From NCBI GenBank assembly GCA_012034595.1, contig JAAUPE010000015.1:352-64351 (forward strand): a DNA stretch of 64,000 nucleotides, written 5' to 3'. Positions 23,648 to 56,867 of this stretch are shown in pieces. Position 1 is the stretch's first letter. Every line of letters starts with the position of its first letter. This DNA comes from Calothrix sp. CSU_2_0. GTDB lineage: Bacteria > Cyanobacteriota > Cyanobacteriia > Cyanobacteriales > Nostocaceae. The notes beneath the pieces are model-generated. The model was given only the letters and a program-made list of their open reading frames with translations. It was not told the origin of the DNA and made no database searches. Both the position numbers and the translations under genes were made by a program.

Positions 23648-23782
23648 AATCCTCAATGAATTTTGGATTTTGGATTTTGGATTTTGGATTTTAGAATCTA
23701 ATATCGGGATTAGAATCCTCAATGAATTTTGGATTTTGGGTTTTAGATTTTAGATTTTGGATTTTAGAATCTAATATCGGGA
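23644..23782. repeat. Tandem duplication (66 + 73 nt) of an STRR-containing unit; copy 1 includes the atpB stop codon
   Basis: ttagaatcctcaatgaattttggatttt..ttagaatctaatatcggga occurs twice back to back. Confidence 0.85.
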
Positions 23783-26127: not shown

Positions 26128-26295
26128 ACATGGGAATCGGGCATAGAGAATGGGGCATAGGGCACAGAATCTCAGGCATTATAAATAGAAATTAAAGAAT
26201 AATTCTATTGTTATTCAATCATCAATGCCCATTGCCCCTTGCCCCTTGCCCCTTGCCCATTGCCTATTACCCAAATTTCTAATAAAGATAGAAAC

Positions 26296-27810: not shown

Positions 27811-27917
27811 ACGAATTTTGGATTACCTTGCGGAGTCTAAAGATTTTGGATTTTGGATTAAACTAAAATCCAAAATTCCGAATCTAAAATCTAAAATCTA
27901 AAATCTAAAATCCGATT
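27811..27917. repeat. STRR (TTTTGGA / AAAATCT heptamers) filling the whole atpA to gamma spacer, with an internal 10-bp hairpin
   Basis: attttggatt (27850-27859) pairs with aatccaaaat (27867-27876). AAAATCT units run to 7 nt before the start codon at 27918. Confidence 0.8.
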
Positions 27918-28865: not shown

Positions 28866-29095
28866 AAGTGAGGAGTTAAGAATTAAGAGTTAAGGGACTT
28901 CCAAAAAATAAAATACCCCAATTATAAACAGACTCGATCGTATCATCCCGTAAGGGCGGGGTAATCCCGCCCCTACAATACTTATGATTTGGATAATTTA
29001 TTTCTTGGTGTTCCCTAAGAATTAAAAACTCCTAACTCCTAACTTTTAACTCCTAACTCCTAACTCCTAACTCCTAACTTTTTTAAAGGTGGCGT
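28866..29095. repeat. Long imperfect inverted STRR arms flanking a GC palindrome; probable end of the atp operon
   Basis: aggagttaagaattaagagttaaggga faces tccctaagaattaaaaactcctaactcct (CTAACTC heptamers). The central palindrome is gtaagggcggggtaatcccgcccctac. Confidence 0.5.
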
Positions 29096-29135: not shown

Positions 29136-29517
29136 GGGTCTGTACTGGTTTCGATTGGGTGGCGAAGGCTTCTCGTTGATGCAGGTCGAGAGCGAGTCGC
29201 ATCTCGTAAATCAAGGCTCAAAACAATAGATGCAAACAACATCGTAAAATTTGCTCGTAAGGAAGTACTAGCTACTGCCTAAAAGCCTCTTATAGGTTCG
29301 AGCGTTTCTAGTGTGACTCCGTTAAGTACTAGAGACAACCCCCAACGGATGCTCTGACAAGTTTTCTTTAGTGGGCTTGTTGGCTAAGATTTCGCTAAAG
29401 CATCCTACGTTCGGGATAATGAACGATTCCCGCCTTGAGGGTCAGATAGGCTAAACCTGTGAATGATGCGGGGGTTAATACCCATGCAACACGGCAGTTC
29501 GATTCTGCCCAGATCCA
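29136..29517 (+). ncRNA. ssrA: tmRNA (one-piece), tag reading frame ANNIVKFARKEVLATA*
   Basis: The 5' GGGUCUG pairs with the 3' CAGAUCC, including a G3:U pair. The T-arm is ggcag-ttcgatt-ctgcc. The resume codon GCA is at 29232 and the stop TAA at 29280-29282. Confidence 0.93.
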
Positions 29518-29538
29518 CTATCAATAATAATTAGTTAG

Positions 29539-29614: not shown

Positions 29615-29740
29615 CGACTATCTCAGATTCCCGACTTCTAACTATGCTTGTTATCAAGTTTAAAGCGACTATCTCAGATTCCCGACTTCTAACTATGCTT
29701 GTTATCAAGTTTAAAGCGATCGCGCAGAAGTCGGGAATCT
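29615..29740. repeat. Perfect 51-bp tandem duplication followed by an inverted copy of a 15-nt segment of the unit
   Basis: Copy 1 is 29615-29665 and copy 2 is 29666-29716. agattcccgacttct (29625-39 and 29676-90) faces agaagtcgggaatct (29726-40). Confidence 0.9.
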
Positions 29741-42601: not shown

Positions 42602-42732
42602 TGAGTTACGATCTTATATTTTTATTAGAAGAACCTTCTATAGAAAATGTTTTAATTTGGGCAAACAACCGTTTGCCCCTACGGTTAAATGACTTCGGGT
42701 TTGTGGATGGTTGTTTTTGCGATCGCTCCTGA
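42601..42732 (+). pseudogene. Possible truncated remnant of the ATPase partner gene (DUF4276-like N-terminus only)
   Basis: The ATG overlaps the ATPase stop (TAATG). The first 18 codons, MSYDLIFLLEEPSIENVL, resemble the N-terminal strand and acidic motif of the partner family. The frame then runs into unrelated sequence and the convergent gene. Confidence 0.25.
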
Positions 42733-44780
42733 ATTACCCTGCTTTGATGGTGGTTTCCCTATATTAATTGCATAATTAATCGCTAAAAGTCGCAACCATA
42801 AACCTGGATAGCGAGATTCTAGCCAAGTTTGATTTCGTTTCAGAAAACCCCCAAACCAAAAACTAAGTAAAGTACTGACAATTGCGTGACGGGTAAAATT
42901 CACGTAATTACCAAGCCATCTAAATAAATCTTTGGCTCCAGCAAGTTCCCAAATCCACAATAATAAGACGGGATTTTTTCTGGCAGCTTTTAATGCTAAG
43001 TGATTAAATGTTAACCAATCAAATCTATCTTTAATAAAATTTTCGGCAACTTCTGGGGATGAATCTGCAAGTAAGCCAAAGAAGTTATTTAACATGGAGT
43101 TGATGCGTTGGGGAGGTAAAAATTTACCTGTGGGAACCATCATCCCTTTAGAAAACATCCAAGTTACCGCAACATTACTTTGGAAAGCGCGAATTGCATT
43201 TAAATGCTTGAAGCTGAGTAAATCGTGTTTCAAAGCTACATCGAGCAACTTTGTTAGACGTTCCAAATTGCGAACTAGGGAACCAAACCCAGTAAATACT
43301 AGTGGAGATTGTAGAGATGCAGCATCACCGATCGCAATTAGTCGATCGAATGCCACAGTGCGATCGCGTGCATTAGTACTAAAATGTCCGGGAATATAAC
43401 CGAATGTGGGTTTTTTCCATTCCAATTTGTCGATATCGCAGCGTCGATATTCTGGCAGAATTGTGAAAAAGTCTTCGTACATTTCCAGCAATGAACCAGG
43501 ATTTTTAGCGTTGACTTGGTGATAGTGGAATAAGTAAATCGTCAATTCGTCATTAGCAGCAGGAAATAATTCCCAAATTAATTGCCTTCCCCGTGATATA
43601 TCTCCGTGACTGTAAAGTACATCACCGTAATTTGCATCCCAAACCCCTGGTTCAAAACCGGATATCACCGCACCCACCGTTGGACATACACTATCAAAAG
43701 CACGATGACCATTTAATTGCCAAGCTATCGGTGAAGCTGTTCCCATTGCATCTATGAGTAATCGACAGCTAACTTGTTTTTCCGTACCATTTGTTAAATC
43801 TTTAACGGTAATTACAGCTTGGGAATTACCTACATCAGCGCGAATAAATTCAGTCTCACCCCAAATTTCACCTCCTGCTGCTTTGAGTTTCTCTCCGCAC
43901 ATTTTCAGCCATTTATCTGACTCTAAAGCAATATTTAATACGGTGGGTGTGTGTAATATGGGTGCTTTTAAATGGGCTGGATTATTGGCATCAAAAAACT
44001 TGTTAATCCATCTTTATATTCCCGTGCAATAATCAATTCGACTTCATTCGGAGTCAACAAACCCAAATTGATTAAACTTTGAATTTCATCCCGCGAAATA
44101 TTCCACTCCCGGTTCATCCGTCCAAACGGTAATCTTTCTACCAGCAAGACTTTGTAACCCAAACGAGCCATTACGGCAGCGTGGATAACTCCTAATGCAC
44201 CTCCGATGTAAATTAAGTCAAATTGGCTTGATTGGGGATTGGGAGTTTTTGCTGTGGATGCCTGTTGATGGGAGAAAATCACCTGACGGGGTTGTTGGGG
44301 ATTTCTCACGCCTTCACGCCAGCGCTGTTCCCACCAGTAAGCCCGTGTCAGGTCATATTCCCCATTCGGCATTTTTTGGAAATATTTGACAGTGAGCGGG
44401 TAATCGGCTGCTAAAGCATCAAAAATCGACTGTTGGGATAGATTAATTGTTGGGGGTTCTGGGTATTTATGCGGAAAGCGATCGCGAATCGATTTTGTTA
44501 GCTGCTTGAGGATATGCATCTCCTGGGGAAAGGGTTTATCCCCCCAACGAAATATCTTCAGATAGGTAGTTCGTTGCACCGACCAAACAAAAGCCGACAG
44601 TTCGTTAGGTAATTTTTCCGAATTATCCGAATTTTTGGTGAGAGAATCAGCCATTCTCAACCGAAAACCGTCAAAAGTCACGATTTTATCACCAATTCCT
44701 GGATTGAGATCCTCTTGCAACCAAGTTAAAACCTTTGCTGTATCAGGATTTGGGATTTCTAGATAAAGTAGTTCTTTCAT
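42685..44780 (-). pseudogene. CruA/CruP-type lycopene-cyclase-family flavoprotein split by a 1-nt frameshift
   Basis: ORFs 43968..44780 and 42685..43902 are consecutive halves. The upstream ORF carries the dinucleotide-binding fold DLIYIGGALGVIHAAVMARLGYKVLLVER. The frame of the second ORF is open back across an A6/T6 run at 43993-43998. Confidence 0.7.
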
Positions 44781-46876: not shown

Positions 46877-49633
46877 TCAATATCTGCGGTTAATTAAGGG
46901 AGAACTTTTTTGATGACGGGGAAACCAATCATCAAGAATGGTATATAAAATTGGCACAACAATTAAACTGAGAATAGTCGAACTAATTAAACCTCCTGCG
47001 ATCGCAACTGCCATAGGCGATCGTAATTCAAATCCGGCTCCAATTCCGAGTGCGATGGGAACCATACCCAAGATTGTAGCTACTGTGGTCATAATGATGG
47101 GACGAAATCTTGTTGGTGCGGCTTCGAGGATTGCTTCGGTGCGCTTGAATCCTTGTTTTCGCAGTTGATTAATATAATCTACTAACAAAATTGCGTTTTT
47201 ATTGCTAATACCAAGTAGGAAGACAAATCCAATTAGGGAAATCATGCCGAAGTCGCTTTTTGTTAAGAATAGGGAAATTATCGCTCCGACTATTGCTAAA
47301 GGTAAGGAAATGCCTATAATTACTGGGTCTTGCCATCCTCCAAATAGTAAAACTAGTACAAGAATAATGCATAAACCTGATAGTAATAATGTCCAGGTGA
47401 AGCTACCTAAAACCTCATTTTGTCTAGCAGAATCTCCCTCCAAAGCTAATTTTACATCTGCGGGAATTGTGGATTTGGCGACTGATACTAATTTGTCTGT
47501 GGCTGCACCAAGGGATAGGTTTTGACCTAAATTTATCTGTCCTAAGTTTGCACTGATATAGGTTACACGTTGATTATTTAAACGTTCAATTTGAAAGATA
47601 TTTTTATCTGTATTTCCTGCACCTGTATAAGTCACATCGACAAATCCTGGTAGTTTCTGAATTTGTGCGGTAATGGCTTTAGCAGCTTGATTTAAACTAT
47701 TTAAATTTTCTCCTTGTAAGGCAATTTGCAGAGGTTTTTGAACTCCACTATCAACGAATTGAATATCCTCAACGCTAATGGTGACATCGGGAATTTTAGG
47801 TAATGAATTACGCAATTGCTCCTGTAAATCACCTGTTTTAATTTGACGTTGTTCCTTTAACTTGACATACAATGTTCCCTTATTTGGTTCACCTTGACGC
47901 GAACCAACGGTGACAAAGACATTTTCCACATTGGTATTTTTGATAATAATATTCTCAAGTTTTTTCGCAATATTTAAAGAATCATTCAAAGGATTATTTA
48001 AAGAATTACTTGCTACTCCAGAAACAGAAAGAGAATTTAAATCAGTACTAAAAATATTTCCGAAAGCATCCTGGGTAGATTGCTGACTTTGTTCCACCAA
48101 CTTCGTCAGCGATGCTGTATAAGTAACATTAAACTCACCCCGATCCAACTTAGGAATAAACCCCTTGGGAATAATTGGAATAATTGCGATCGCAATGATA
48201 AAGCTTAATACCGCTAAACCCATAACAACTTTTCGATGTTGCAATGACCATTTCAATAAATCTTGGTATTTTTGAGCAAAATAACCCCACTTATTCTGTT
48301 CTTCTTCTGTGTCGTTATTTCTATTTCCTTTCTTCCCCCGAATCCAATAAATCGCCAGTACCGGAGATAAAGTTCTAGCAACCAACAACGAAGTCAACAT
48401 CGCTGCCGAAACCGTAATTCCAAACGGTTTAAAAAACTGTCCAACCACACCTCCCATTAACCCAATTGGCAAAAACACCGCAACAGCAGTTAACGTGGCA
48501 GCAGTAACTGTCACCCCGATTTCTGAAGTTGCTGAAAGTGCTGCTTGACGGGGAGTTTCCCCCCGATCTATGTGACGCATAATATTTTCTACGTCAACTA
48601 TTGCATCATCGATAATACTGCCAATTACTAATGCTAATGCTAGCAATGTAATAGTTTCTAAATTGAAACCAAATATCGCCATAACAATAAATGTTCCCAT
48701 TAAGGAAATGGGAATTGCTAAAGCGGAAATTATTGTTGCTTGCCAGTTTCGCAAAAATGGGTAAATTACTACCACCGATAAAATTATCGCTTCAATTAAC
48801 GAATCAATCGTTGATTGTGTGGCTTTGCGAATAAATTCTGCCTGGGTTGATGCTAAAATCAATTTGACATTGGGTAAACTAGAACGCAATTTATCAACTT
48901 CTGCTTCAACCCTACCCACCACCTCCAAAGTATTCGCATCTCCCCGTTTAATCACTTGAATTGCGATCGCGTCTTTGCCATTAAATCGAATTAAAGTCGC
49001 ACCTTGCCCCGGTAAACTGGTGGTATTCGTATTTTGATCTGGTTCACCCAATAGTACAACTTTGAGAACTCCCGGTAACTTCGAGATATTCGCGATAATT
49101 TTTTGTTTGGTTAAACTTGCTAAATCCTCTAGATTTAGGCGATCGCTTTCAATTGCATAACTAATCACAGCAGATTCATTCAAATTGAAGGGGATAACCT
49201 TGTATTCTGCCCCTGCTGTCAATTTTATCTGCTTGAGTACATCCTCAACTTTGCGAGTCGATCTATCTAAATTTGTCCCCACAGGAAACTCAAGACTAAT
49301 GACTGATTGCCCTGGATAACTCGAAGAACGAACGTCATCAACCTGTGCCAAAGTTCGCAAACGCTGTTCGAGGGGTTTTGTTAATTTCGCTTCCGTATCT
49401 AACGCTGTAGTCAACGGTGCGGTTGCGTTTACCACCACCACAGGGAAGGTAATATCTGGGAATAGTGCATATTTCAGCGAAGTAAATGCCAAAATTCCAG
49501 CCACCATCACAGCAATCCAAAAGCTCAGGGTTAGCCAAGAATGTTGAATTGCCCATCGAGAAATATTAAAGCGTTCACCGAAGGTATATCTTTGACCATC
49601 GCGTGCTGATTTTGGGCGAATAGGCTTCATCAT
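46877..49633 (-). CDS. RND-family efflux permease (AcrB/HAE-like), short form, with no adjacent adaptor gene
   Basis: 918 aa with an AcrB-like N-terminus (FNISRWAIQHSWLT..). Two 6-TM bundles flank large periplasmic loops. Confidence 0.9.
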   Translation of the reverse strand: MMKPIRPKSARDGQRYTFGERFNISRWAIQHSWLTLSFWIAVMVAGILAFTSLKYALFPDITFPVVVVNATAPLTTALDTEAKLTKPLEQRLRTLAQVDDVRSSSYPGQSVISLEFPVGTNLDRSTRKVEDVLKQIKLTAGAEYKVIPFNLNESAVISYAIESDRLNLEDLASLTKQKIIANISKLPGVLKVVLLGEPDQNTNTTSLPGQGATLIRFNGKDAIAIQVIKRGDANTLEVVGRVEAEVDKLRSSLPNVKLILASTQAEFIRKATQSTIDSLIEAIILSVVVIYPFLRNWQATIISALAIPISLMGTFIVMAIFGFNLETITLLALALVIGSIIDDAIVDVENIMRHIDRGETPRQAALSATSEIGVTVTAATLTAVAVFLPIGLMGGVVGQFFKPFGITVSAAMLTSLLVARTLSPVLAIYWIRGKKGNRNNDTEEEQNKWGYFAQKYQDLLKWSLQHRKVVMGLAVLSFIIAIAIIPIIPKGFIPKLDRGEFNVTYTASLTKLVEQSQQSTQDAFGNIFSTDLNSLSVSGVASNSLNNPLNDSLNIAKKLENIIIKNTNVENVFVTVGSRQGEPNKGTLYVKLKEQRQIKTGDLQEQLRNSLPKIPDVTISVEDIQFVDSGVQKPLQIALQGENLNSLNQAAKAITAQIQKLPGFVDVTYTGAGNTDKNIFQIERLNNQRVTYISANLGQINLGQNLSLGAATDKLVSVAKSTIPADVKLALEGDSARQNEVLGSFTWTLLLSGLCIILVLVLLFGGWQDPVIIGISLPLAIVGAIISLFLTKSDFGMISLIGFVFLLGISNKNAILLVDYINQLRKQGFKRTEAILEAAPTRFRPIIMTTVATILGMVPIALGIGAGFELRSPMAVAIAGGLISSTILSLIVVPILYTILDDWFPRHQKSSPLINRRY

Positions 49634-49856
49634 TATCTAATGTCTCCAACAGACATCGCAATCAGGTTTTTTAGCTTGTTTCAAAATTTTTCCTAACTGA
49701 CTACGGTTGTCACTGTTTTTTGATTCAATTTTTGATTTTATGCTGATTTTTCCTTTTCAGCGTAACTTTAATAATTAGCTCTTGGGATAGATGACTTTTT
49801 TAGGAAAATAATTTTTAAATTTATTTTTTTGTGTAATCACCACTGAATAAGCAATC

Positions 49857-50041
49857 GTTTACCTCGATTATATTGGGTAAATAACGGTTTACCCCGATAA
49901 TATTGGGTAAACAACCGTTTACCCCTACAGGATAATATTGGGTAAACAACGGTTTACCTCGATAATATTGGGTAAACAACGGTTTGCCCCGATAATATTG
50001 GGTAAATAACGGTTTACCCCGATAATATTGGGTGAACAGCC
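49857..50041. repeat. Six tandem 30-bp units (one of 35 bp), each dyad-symmetric: GTTTACCC-N10-GGGTAAAC-N4
   Basis: Units run 49857-86, 49887-916, 49917-51, 49952-81, 49982-50011 and 50012-41. There are no spacers. The array sits in the divergent promoter region between the RND gene and the phosphorylase-like gene. Confidence 0.95.
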
Positions 50042-50079
50042 GTACTCCGAAGCCCAAAAGCAAGCTACACCTCTATAGA

Positions 50080-50802
50080 ATGTCACTTTCCCAAATATCG
50101 ACAATTCAAGTGATTCTGGTTCCCCAAGGAGCAGAATATAACGCAGTCTGTAAAGGATTAAATCGCGTTTCTGGGGAAATTCCCCAAGTTGTACCGATTC
50201 CGATTGGTAGTCCAGGATTAATTACATATCTGGAAAAATTAGAAATTATTGCAGAATTACGCAAAGAATTACAGCCAAACATATTAGTAATGGGTTTGTG
50301 TGGCAGTTTAAAATCGGAATATAAGATTGGTAATGTAGTAATTTATGAAAGTTGTATTTATCACAATAATCTTAATAAAAGCGTGATTCGAGAATTTAGT
50401 CTAAATTTAACAACTGATTTACTAAAAAAATTAGAATTAAGCCAACAAAAACAAATATCAAAAGTTAAAGGGATAACATGCGATCGCATTATTTTTGCTG
50501 CCCAAGAAAAACACCATCTCGCACAAACCCATAATGCTGATGTTGTAGATATGGAAGGATTCACAATTTTAGAATTTTTCAATTCTCTGAATATATCTGT
50601 TGCCATGCTGCGGGTAGTCAGCGATGATAGCAAACATGACTTACCCGATTTAAATTTTGCCATTAGTCCCGAAGGTTCACTACAAACCCTACCTTTAGCA
50701 TTGGGAATGTTACGTCAACCGGTTGCAGCAACACGTTTAATCCGAGGTTCATTAAAAGGATTAAAAGTATTAGAAAAAATCACAACTGACATTATTAATT
50801 AA
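50080..50802 (+). CDS. Nucleoside phosphorylase-superfamily (PNP_UDP_1) protein, MTA/SAH-nucleosidase or HpnG-like
   Basis: ILVMGLCGSL..IGNVV ... ADVVDMEG ... LRVVSD. I chose ATG 50080 because the GTG at 50032 lies inside the repeat array. Confidence 0.65.
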   Translation: MSLSQISTIQVILVPQGAEYNAVCKGLNRVSGEIPQVVPIPIGSPGLITYLEKLEIIAELRKELQPNILVMGLCGSLKSEYKIGNVVIYESCIYHNNLNKSVIREFSLNLTTDLLKKLELSQQKQISKVKGITCDRIIFAAQEKHHLAQTHNADVVDMEGFTILEFFNSLNISVAMLRVVSDDSKHDLPDLNFAISPEGSLQTLPLALGMLRQPVAATRLIRGSLKGLKVLEKITTDIIN

Positions 50803-54013: not shown

Positions 54014-54016
54014 TAA

Positions 54017-54138
54017 TTAGGAATTAAGAGTTAGGAATTAGGAATTAGGAGTTAGGAATTAGGAATTAAGAGTTAGGAATTAGGAATTAAGAGTTAGGAA
54101 TTAAGAGTTAGGAGTTAGGAATTAGGAGTTAGGAGTTT
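54017..54138. repeat. STRR array (TTAGGAA / TTAAGAG / TTAGGAG heptamers)
   Basis: Read directly. It begins 4 nt after the AbgT stop. Confidence 0.9.
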
Positions 54139-55224: not shown

Positions 55225-56634
55225 ATGAATTTAGATATCACCAATGCTAGAGCGATCGCAACAGCAGTTCAAACGGGTAAAATCTCCGCACTGCAAGTTA
55301 TTCGCACAACTTTAGAACAGATTCAAACACGAAACCAACAATTTAATTGTTTTACTGCTGTCACTACTGAAACCGCTTTACTCGACGCAGAAACAATAGA
55401 TAGCGAAATTGCAGCAGGAAAAAATCCCGGTTTACTTGCTGGAGTTCCCTTTGCAGTCAAAAACCTCTTCGATATCCAAGGTATAACAACCCTCGCAGGA
55501 GCAAAAATTAATGCCGAAAATCCCCCTGCAACCCAAGATGCAACCGCGATCGCAAAACTAAAACAAGCTGGTGCAATTCTCGTTGGTGCGTTGAATATGG
55601 ACGAGTACGCATATGGATTTGTTACCGAAAATTCCCATTACGGAGCTACTCGCAATCCCCACGATATCAACCGAGTTGCAGGAGGTTCATCAGGAGGTTC
55701 TGCTGCTGCGGTTGCTGCGGGATTAGTTCCCCTCACACTCGGTTCCGACACCAACGGTTCGATTCGCGTTCCTGCTGCATTATGTGGTGTCTATGGTTTC
55801 AAACCCACATACGGTAGATTATCCCGTGCTGGAGTCGCATTATTTTCCAGTAGTTTCGACCACATTGGCACATTTACCCGTTCCATCGCAGATACCGCGA
55901 TCGCATTCGATATTTTACAAGGTTACGACAATCGCGATCCAATTTGTACAAACCACCCCAATGTAGAGACGCGATACATCGCGTCTCTCCCCCATATTGA
56001 TAGAATTAATATTGATGGCATTAGAATTGCGATCGCAGGTGATTATTTTGCCCAAAAAGCCGAACCAGAAGCCTTAGAAGCGGTGCAAAAAGTCGCTGAT
56101 GCATTGAATATCAAAAATTACATTACCATACCCGAAAGCCATCGTGCCCGTGCTGCTGCGTTTGTAATTACTGCCGTAGAAGGAGCTAATTTACATTTCG
56201 ATAAATTGCGCGATCGCTCCCAAGATTTCGATCCAGCAACACGCGATCGCTTTTTAGCTGGTGCTTTAATTCCCAGTCAATGGTATGTGCAAGCGCAACG
56301 TTTTAGAAGATGGTATCGGGATAAAGTTAGAGAAATATTTGCCAATGTCGATATAATTATCGCTCCAACAACACCAATTACCGCACCATTAATTGGACAG
56401 GAAACAATGATTTTAGATGGTGAAGAAATCCTCGTGCGTCCATATTTAGGACAATTTACCCAACCATTATCATTTATTGGTTTACCTGTTTTATCAGTTC
56501 CAATTCTAAGAGCAAATGCGTTACCTTTAGGTGTGCAAATCATCGCAGCACCTTATAATGAAGCGAAGATTTTACAAGTTGCCGGATTATTAGAAAAAAT
56601 GGGCACTGTAGCAACCCGGTTTCTCCCCAACTAA
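55225..56634 (+). CDS. Amidase-signature enzyme, AtzE-family (GatA-like) amidohydrolase
   Basis: GGSSGGSAAAVAAG, LGSDTNGSIRVPAALCG, and the AtzE-typical NMDEYAYGFVTENSHYG. Confidence 0.85.
   Translation: MNLDITNARAIATAVQTGKISALQVIRTTLEQIQTRNQQFNCFTAVTTETALLDAETIDSEIAAGKNPGLLAGVPFAVKNLFDIQGITTLAGAKINAENPPATQDATAIAKLKQAGAILVGALNMDEYAYGFVTENSHYGATRNPHDINRVAGGSSGGSAAAVAAGLVPLTLGSDTNGSIRVPAALCGVYGFKPTYGRLSRAGVALFSSSFDHIGTFTRSIADTAIAFDILQGYDNRDPICTNHPNVETRYIASLPHIDRINIDGIRIAIAGDYFAQKAEPEALEAVQKVADALNIKNYITIPESHRARAAAFVITAVEGANLHFDKLRDRSQDFDPATRDRFLAGALIPSQWYVQAQRFRRWYRDKVREIFANVDIIIAPTTPITAPLIGQETMILDGEEILVRPYLGQFTQPLSFIGLPVLSVPILRANALPLGVQIIAAPYNEAKILQVAGLLEKMGTVATRFLPN
55966..55987. repeat. Small palindromic dispersed repeat lying in frame inside the amidase CDS
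   Basis: gagacgcgat-ac-atcgcgtctc occupies codons 248-255 (ETRYIASL). Confidence 0.7.
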
Positions 56635-56725
56635 ACATCTCTAATTAGAACGAAAAACCCGTAGCAACCCGGTTTCTCCCCAACGAAACATCTCCAATTA
56701 GAACGAAAAACCCTGAAACCGGGTT
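56608..56725. repeat. 53-bp tandem duplication overlapping the amidase stop codon, followed by an inverted 11-nt arm
   Basis: Copy 1 is 56608-60 and copy 2 is 56661-713, with 2 mismatches. aacccggtttc (56613-23 and 56666-76) faces gaaaccgggtt (56715-25). Confidence 0.9.
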
Positions 56726-56867
56726 TCTTAACCCACGTAAAAACCCCAAACAACCTAGTATTTTAGAGTGCGTTAGAACGGAGTTCATAACGCACCAAAT
56801 CCTTATAATGGTGCGTTACGCTATCGCTAACACACCCTACGTATGTTTCAAAAATCAAATATTAATC

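Follow-up and report, generated by a model that had tools for sequence, protein, structure and literature searches.

A spacer-less array of six palindromic 30-bp units lies between two divergent genes, encoding an RND permease and a phosphorylase-like protein, in the 64,000-nucleotide stretch of DNA analyzed here (the window). Considering its homology to a dispersed repeat family, the single copies found at orthologous sites and the allelic variation between samples, the array is very probably the product of a lineage-specific, head-to-tail amplification of one GTAG-tagged REP element together with about 9–10 bp of its A/T-rich flank (GATAATATT), and we regard this amplification as recent and unstable. 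The window comes from a short-read metagenome assembly. Its host is a heterocystous cyanobacterium found in stromatolite metagenomes, and Brunnivagina elsteri CCALA 953 is its closest named relative, with 81% identity in the downstream phosphorylase-like protein.

TRF reported a tandem repeat of period 30 at positions 49857–50038, with 5.9 copies, 85% matches and a score of 263, the top score in the 64-kb window. The 30-mer consensus GTTTACCCCGATAATATTGGGTAAACAACG was matched five times at three or fewer mismatches, compared to 0.00 matches expected in shuffles, and alignment A1 placed the sixth unit at 49917–49951, where it carries five extra bases (TACAG). The units abut, and no spacers are present. 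These results bear out the six-unit array at 49857–50041 described in an initial annotation made from the sequence alone; the variation among units that it put at 1–4 substitutions was also found, in a measured range of 0–3 substitutions from the consensus. The array, its hairpins and a related single copy are as follows.

49857–50041, no strand assigned: tandem array of six units
49857–49886: unit 1
49887–49916: unit 2
49917–49951: unit 3 (35 nt)
49952–49981: unit 4
49982–50011: unit 5
50012–50041: unit 6
49875–49894, minus strand: REP hairpin 1 (cross-unit), GGGTAAAT-AACG-GTTTACCC, with one G.T pair
49905–49928, minus strand: REP hairpin 2, the sole complete tagged copy of the array, reading GTAG-GGGTAAAC-GGTT-GTTTACCC on the minus strand
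49940–49959, minus strand: REP hairpin 3, GGGTAAAC-AACG-GTTTACCT
49970–49989, minus strand: REP hairpin 4, GGGTAAAC-AACG-GTTTGCCC
50000–50019, minus strand: REP hairpin 5, GGGTAAAT-AACG-GTTTACCC
50030–50048, no strand assigned: terminal degenerate hairpin, GGGTGAAC-AGCC-GTACTCC
42659–42682, minus strand: singleton of the same family with a full tag, GTAG-GGGCAAAC-GGTT-GTTTGCCC

Each unit is composed of a right arm GTTTACCC(C), a linker GATAATATT, a left arm GGGTAAAC and the loop AACS, and the orientation of the array is uniform, with all AACS loops and tags facing the same way. Both pairing registers recognized in the initial annotation exist: the palindrome GGGTAAAC-AACS-GTTTACCC crosses unit boundaries at 49875, 49905, 49940, 49970 and 50000, and the intra-unit form with its 10-nt loop also folds. 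When each hairpin is folded alone, the cross-unit form has a slight advantage in stability over the intra-unit form, both as RNA (−8.6 to −10.0 versus −8.4 kcal/mol) and in DNA folding (about −6.4 versus about −5.3). Four of the array hairpins contain one G.T pair each. The GTAG tag is missing from all array hairpins other than hairpin 2, where the TAC of the tag corresponds to the first three bases of the TACAG insert of unit 3; five of the six units are untagged. A minus-strand ORF that crosses the array (49821–50063) was attributed to the 30-bp periodicity.

Positions 49879–50400 are covered without differences by tiling, independent Logan contigs of run X1, which reproduce the unit order inside the array (49879–50033) exactly. 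The contigs of all three runs (X1, X2 and X3) end within the array. Because the left junction (49830–49865) is covered by no contig among these runs, the exact unit number rests on the assembly.

The real module of the array is the hairpin with an 8-bp stem and a 4-nt loop, GGGTAAAC-AACS-GTTTACCC(C-TAC), that crosses the unit boundaries and reads GTAG-GGGTAAAC-GGTT-GTTTACCC on the minus strand; the family consensus, on the other strand, is GTAG-GGGCAAAC-GGTT-GTTTGCCC. The pattern GGGYAAAC-N4-GTTTRCCCCYAC was found at no fewer than 106 loci in genome contigs, nearly all of them cyanobacterial, with Brunnivagina, Nodosilinea, Leptolyngbya, Okeania, Xenococcaceae and others among the hosts of the loci listed. 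Among the matches listed, the cyanobacterial form of the palindrome was always GGG(C/T)AAAC-AACC-GTTT(G/A)CCCC-TAC, and the element is oriented, single-tag copies having an AACC loop in 49 cases versus GGTT in 4. Some dispersed copies are full palindromes with a 12-bp stem. By contrast, the 26-nt intra-unit pattern had no match in 185,579 representative genomes, and the junction of linker and hairpin had none in a metagenome contig collection, indicating that the composite 30-bp unit is not dispersed. Dispersal of the repeat, which the initial annotation had considered the outcome unfavorable to its own proposal, is therefore essentially what the cross-unit palindrome displays, while the intra-unit palindrome does not. 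The register chosen there folds, but its functional core is misplaced, since the module is the cross-unit hairpin and the supposed loop is co-amplified flank.

The published REP descriptor (PMC6006769, RNAMotif) places GTAG 0–2 nt 5′ of a perfect stem of 7–20 bp with a loop of 2–5 nt and demands at least three G/C among the four basal pairs. The family element fits it, with its 8-bp stem, its 4-nt loop and a stem base of GGGC or GGGT. REPs of the GTAG super-family have an unpaired GTAG or GTGG tetranucleotide in this position, and an unpaired GTAG tag is present at 42682 (minus strand) and in array hairpin 2 at 49928 (minus strand). In Brunnivagina elsteri the element is multi-copy, dispersed and extragenic: it occurs at 21 or more loci, on at least 21 scaffolds, and 21 of the 22 copies among the matches listed lie outside ORFs of 120 aa or longer. 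These Brunnivagina copies are followed by T-rich DNA on the GTAG strand; a terminator role was considered and set aside, the orientation bias of dispersed copies relative to gene 3′ ends being too weak (7 co-oriented versus 3 anti-oriented among unambiguous cases). Within the 64 kb, the copies of the host genome itself are the array and one singleton, the related single copy that had been annotated at 42659–42678 and that in fact extends to 42682 with a CTAC tail. It sits between convergent ORFs, 3 nt past the end of the minus-strand ORF 42685–43902. The stem GGGCAAAC/GTTTGCCC, sought by sequence in the literature, gave chance primer matches only. The consensus sequences of GTAG-12, -15 and -16 are published as figures.

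Only very rarely does this family form tight direct arrays. In the 185,579 genomes there was one other, a three-copy array of period ~43 bp in Nodosilinea (L134), and in the metagenome collection the tight tandem pattern, which recovers the window array as a control, had no match. This rarity suggests that something may favour or tolerate an array at this site. In Leptolyngbya sp. DLM2.Bin27 (L009, ~440–500), the left arm and loop (ATCGGGTAAACAAC x4) form a 14-nt tandem directly 5′ of a complete REP, a repetition that we read as another slippage product of the same REP.

Six GTAG-tagged perfect hairpins of several stem types occur in the window, compared to 0.14 in shuffles. The four with other stems (GTAGGGGTGGGG..., GTAGAGACG..., GTAGGGGCGGG...), at 1439 (+), 11339 (+), 55963 (+) and 28976 (−), indicate that this genome hosts several REP families; the orthologous intergenic region of L138 also has a copy of the GTAGAGACG type. 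Other repeats were observed as well. Heptamer tandem arrays are many (for example 54015–54137, 23660–23768, 27863–27912, 29027–29079, 26226–26273 and 2016–2110), with units such as AATTAGG (x17), ATTTTGG, CTAAAAT, AACTCCT, TGCCCAT and TCAGGAA, a pattern typical of STRR repeats in heterocystous cyanobacteria. At 56608–56728 there is a further tandem repeat, with a unit of 53 bp (2.3 copies, 91% identity). The only Rfam match in the window at gathering thresholds is a tmRNA gene (29136–29520, plus strand, 106 bits), which is followed ~95 nt on by a perfect 51-bp tandem duplication at 29615–29719 (2.1 copies, 100% identity). Since tmRNA 3′ ends are common integration sites, this duplication might be an att-like scar.

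A related-locus search seeded with the phosphorylase returned no loci, and orthologous sites were obtained via homologous proteins and then their encoding contigs. The gene order epimerase–RND–gap–phosphorylase is conserved in the relatives, and the gap holds the following.

L135/L136: one copy, GTAT-GGGCAAAC-GGTT-GTTCGCCC-TGATAATATT
L023: a single copy, its loop enlarged, next to the same GATAATATT flank
L138: a copy that is disrupted, together with TGAATAATATT
Brunnivagina: a single copy in degenerate form, GTAG-GGGCGAAC-GGTT-GTACTCC
L025 and Calothrix UHCC 0171: no hairpin

None of the relatives examined has the six-unit array in its orthologous divergent region, where zero or one hairpin is present. 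The presence of GATAATATT in single-copy relatives shows that what had been annotated as the loop, our linker, is ancestral flanking DNA, and the combination of single copy and flank in these relatives indicates that the array is a singleton REP with its flank, repeated in tandem. The degenerate Brunnivagina copy aligns with the terminal hairpin of the window (50030–50048), which is probably the ancestral resident copy. The relatives have the tag and the GGTT loop on the plus strand, and the window has its AACS loops and its tags on the opposite one, suggesting that the element was flipped or replaced before it was amplified.

The array also differs between samples. In runs X2 and X3, which represent other stromatolite samples, contig L021 shows an array end reading ...CCCCTACGG-GATAATATT-GGGTAAACAACCGTTTGCCCATACAG-GATAATATT-GGGTGAAC. 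Its units are absent from the window, indicating that the array is polymorphic in the population. The initial annotation had suggested comparing unit number between strains as a check for VNTR behaviour; relatives have zero or one copy, and samples differ in the array allele. The family tag CCC-(C/A)TAC-RG is present in unit 3 and in two units of the other allele. Unit 3 does have the five extra bases that had been annotated as a 5-nt insertion, but they are best read as a retained or acquired tag (family CCCC-TAC, that is, GTAG) rather than as a plain insertion.

Further changes were noticed around these sites. In L138 (a JGI metagenome, ~700–745) the left arm of the resident REP is broken by GTAGCTTGCTTCTCCGCTTCGGAGTAC, whose reverse complement is found downstream of the REP both in Brunnivagina and in the window. 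This is a local inversion; the intergenic region is expanded to 686 nt there, and the site has the appearance of a hot spot of rearrangement. The leader region between the REP and the phosphorylase start also varies in a short tandem repeat, CGCAGATAAA, with 3–4 copies in L135, 1–2 in L023 and L138, and none in the window.

Screening of the retrieved loci by regex and tblastn connected the family to RayT. A 193-aa ORF in Nodosilinea (L078) carries the motifs NHVH...WQ...YYITNNP, scores 22.9 bits against Pfam Y1_Tnp (cut-off 23) and has homologues annotated "REP element-mobilizing transposase RayT". Upstream of this gene, at a distance of ~135 nt, two copies of exactly this REP form an inverted pair, tag to tag, and in a member of the Phormidesmidales (L122) a truncated RayT fragment has the same inverted pair immediately next to it or overlapping with it. 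RayT genes of Nostocales (Gloeotrichia, Nostoc) are flanked by sister REPs, GTAGGGGC-N5... (GTAGGGGCATGGCAWTGCCATGCCC and similar), and in Gloeotrichia nine direct tandem copies of a sister REP lie beside the RayT gene with periods of 83 and 137 bp. No RayT gene was found within the 64-kb window, and adjacency of RayT to this exact REP was seen only in cyanobacterial orders other than that of the host. REP hairpins were also observed inside RayT coding sequences, in Nodosilinea (L078, 2257–2285, GTAGGGGCTTTGCACTGCAAAGCCCCTAC) and in L133 (~1777), in agreement with a published peculiarity of cyanobacterial RayT subclass 2.4.

We then considered the genes and non-coding DNA on either side of the array.

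50080–50802, plus strand: downstream gene of the PNP_UDP_1 phosphorylase superfamily, best NCBIfam match HpnG, below cut-off
46877–49633, minus strand: divergent gene, RND permease (ACR_tran) of 918 aa; orthologues have 900–909 aa
45732–46727, minus strand: sugar epimerase of the hopanoid-associated HpnA type, 454 bits (cut-off 368)
49779–49811, plus strand: top-conserved non-coding block, CTCTTGGGATAGATGACTTTTTTAGGAAAATAA, with TTGGGA at 49782–49787, a 16-nt spacer and GAAAAT at 49804–49809

HpnG is a hopanoid-associated phosphorylase. The RND protein is generic, and a squalene-hopene cyclase is nearby in one relative. The locus is probably hopanoid-associated, which we take as context only. 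Both start codons (50080 and 49633) agree with the orthologues, and the array lies 38 nt from ATG 50080 and 223 nt from the first ATG of the RND gene, confirming the placement given in the initial annotation with distances one nucleotide shorter than its 39 and 224 nt. The RND gene has a 24-nt in-frame insertion, GGTCAAAGATATACCTTCGGTGAA, at 49574–49597 (minus strand), which adds GQRYTFGE, interrupts a sequence that in Brunnivagina is a HIP1 site (GCGATCGC), has no second copy in the window and recalls the small dispersed repeats that insert in frame. At 49634–49697, ~62 nt separate the RND start codon from a conserved TGACTACRGTTGTCACTG block; Brunnivagina, L023, L135 and L138 lack these nucleotides and have their ATG directly against the block. 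This segment holds a palindrome, ATGTCT-GTTGG-AGACAT (49639–49657), that is unique in the window.

The conserved block at 49779–49811 may be the promoter of the phosphorylase gene. Its pattern, CTCTTGGGATAGATGAC-TTTTTT-N-GAAAATAA, lies just left of the array in seven of seven aligned sequences (alignment A2), and in hairpin-free orthologues the block is ~45–55 nt upstream of the start codon, a spacing normal for a promoter and its ATG that would place the REP or the array in the phosphorylase 5′ leader. The array thus most likely falls within the 5′ leader of the HpnG-like gene, starting ~40 nt in. A promoter scan returned three sites versus 2.1 expected, which is at background, and the block was below its threshold. 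A promoter-like match inside unit 3 was treated as a chance occurrence. No terminator-like site was found in 49500–50200; the linker reads GAUAAUAUU on the plus strand and AAUAUUAUC on the minus strand, and the array hairpins do not qualify as intrinsic terminators, which have a U run behind a G/C-rich hairpin.

As RNA, the array region folds with −78.1 kcal/mol (z = −4.98 relative to shuffles; z = −3.27 as DNA), a strong score of the kind that tandem palindromes always produce. In the predicted minimum-free-energy fold, no pairing involves the start-codon region. All six arm substitutions in alignment A1 are transitions, and all keep G.U pairing in plus-strand RNA; they represent only ~4 independent events (p ~0.06), and dispersed copies showed no G.U versus A.C strand bias (4 versus 5). 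The pattern hints weakly at selection on structure.

From these data we propose the following history. REP elements of this family would spread in cyanobacterial genomes by transposases of the RayT/TnpA-REP type, tyrosine transposases that act on single-stranded hairpins. An ancestor would have had a resident REP copy in this intergenic region, and in the lineage of the window this copy would have been flipped or replaced and then multiplied, via replication slippage or unequal recombination between short flanking repeats, into an unstable, VNTR-like array. As a probable side effect, the leader of the HpnG-like gene would be longer by ~180 nt of strongly self-pairing RNA, with the start-codon region left unpaired. 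Most likely, the array has no dedicated regulatory role and is tolerated as selfish or structural DNA.

Several alternatives bear on this conclusion. The same REP origin could be combined with a selected function, the array having been co-opted as a structured 5′-leader RNA whose VNTR-like copy number tunes the HpnG-like gene at the level of mRNA stability, attenuation or translation. The promoter-like block upstream, from whose position the array is probably transcribed, the fold far better than that of shuffles, the preserved G.U pairs and the alleles that vary between samples would all agree with such a role, and REPs have been reported to influence mRNA stability and termination (PMC3733652). 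Yet the fold score comes with any tandem palindrome, the G.U pattern is statistically weak and missing in dispersed copies, the scanned region yielded no terminator-like site, pairing spares the start codon in the predicted fold, and the array is not kept in relatives, so that we consider a leader function unlikely. Quite improbable is a contingency locus in which slippage in unit number alters the length and structure of this leader together with the spacing of the divergent RND promoter; if true, a mat-building cyanobacterium could thereby adjust the processing of hopanoid side chains, or export, in a heritable and reversible way. The regular 30-bp phasing, about three helical turns, and the 6–12 palindromic half-site pairs in a divergent intergenic region had led the initial annotation to offer phased protein-binding sites of operator, iteron or centromere type, which would control the two divergent genes or a replicon function. 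This proposal fares poorly and is very improbable: the array is lacking from every orthologous promoter region examined, it varies within one population, its palindrome is a dispersed, mobile-type repeat present at unrelated extragenic loci, and Pfam detected no regulator, Rep, Par or Cas domain in seven ORFs around the array (45.7–54.0 kb), one of which had no match. An NtcA-type site was also rejected. The NtcA consensus is GTA-N8-TAC, and the palindrome gives GTA-N10-TAC.

It is scarcely credible that the array arose as an artefact of assembly or is what remains of a degenerate CRISPR. Its source is a short-read assembly, contigs of three runs break in it and the left junction is uncovered, and a 30-bp unit with GTTT...AAAC ends superficially resembles a CRISPR repeat; however, independent contigs give an identical internal unit order, the units are individually marked by distinguishing substitutions, spacers are absent and the core is homologous to the REP family. 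The initial annotation was right to dismiss CRISPR on the lack of spacers, a view to which the seven ORFs free of Cas domains can be added. Several points count against the REP amplification that we favor: RayT is absent from the window and its link to this REP comes from other cyanobacterial orders, most units are untagged, head-to-tail REP dimers are reported to be rare in most genomes (PMC3733652), tight direct arrays of this family are themselves very rare, and the arm substitutions could hint at selection on structure. Among the options offered at the outset, an amplified mini-palindrome was nevertheless the correct one, the palindrome being a REP that was amplified with its flank and that relatives hold in single copy.

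For annotation, these results mean that a spacer-less palindromic array in a divergent promoter region can be recognized as REP-type selfish DNA rather than as a new regulatory or CRISPR-like system. They also document a widespread, RayT-linked cyanobacterial GTAG-REP with the GGGCAAAC stem, whose sequence we did not find described in the literature, and they provide a natural case of REP and flank amplification in which ancestral single-copy states and population alleles are both available. The array may serve as a strain marker and, if transcribed, as a test case for the effect of a REP array on a 5′ leader.

Compared with known systems, the array shares with CRISPR, iteron and operator arrays direct repeats of ~30 bp with internal dyad symmetry, but it differs from them in having no spacers, no cas, rep or par gene among the scanned neighbours and an orthologous site that is not conserved. 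The STRR heptamers and SDR of heterocystous cyanobacteria are likewise small, locally expanding repeats of the same host group, whereas STRR units are 7 nt long without dyad symmetry and the unit described here is a 30-bp palindrome with a GTAG tag. E. coli BIMEs, which are known to contribute structure at mRNA ends and to bind IHF and gyrase, also consist of regularly spaced REPs clustered in extragenic DNA; they alternate in orientation and have defined linker motifs, in contrast to the array, whose copies are all direct and are joined by local flank. The closest counterparts are the GTAG-tagged REPs and their RayT/TnpA-REP transposases, cyanobacterial GTAG-12, -15 and -16 included (PMC3733652; PMC6006769; PMC2817692). 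As in these, the element has GTAG immediately 5′ of a perfect, G/C-based stem of 8 bp that closes a 4-nt loop; it occurs in many extragenic, oriented copies, forms an inverted pair next to RayT in two genomes and has sister REPs on the flanks of the RayT genes of Nostocales, although most array units are tagless and RayT was not seen in this genome fragment. Large REP clusters have been described in which a singleton REP and its flanking DNA are reiterated head-to-tail (PMC3733652), and evenly spaced tandem REP/REPIN arrays are known from Pseudomonas fluorescens SBW25 (PMC3116915). The array corresponds to such clusters in being a reiterated singleton with flank, evenly spaced and strain-variable, and is unusual only in its head-to-tail arrangement, its near-complete tag loss and its very short period: it is the largest tight array of its family in the 185,579 genomes, and at 30 bp, compared to ~70–180 bp in the arrays described, the arms of neighbouring units pair with each other.
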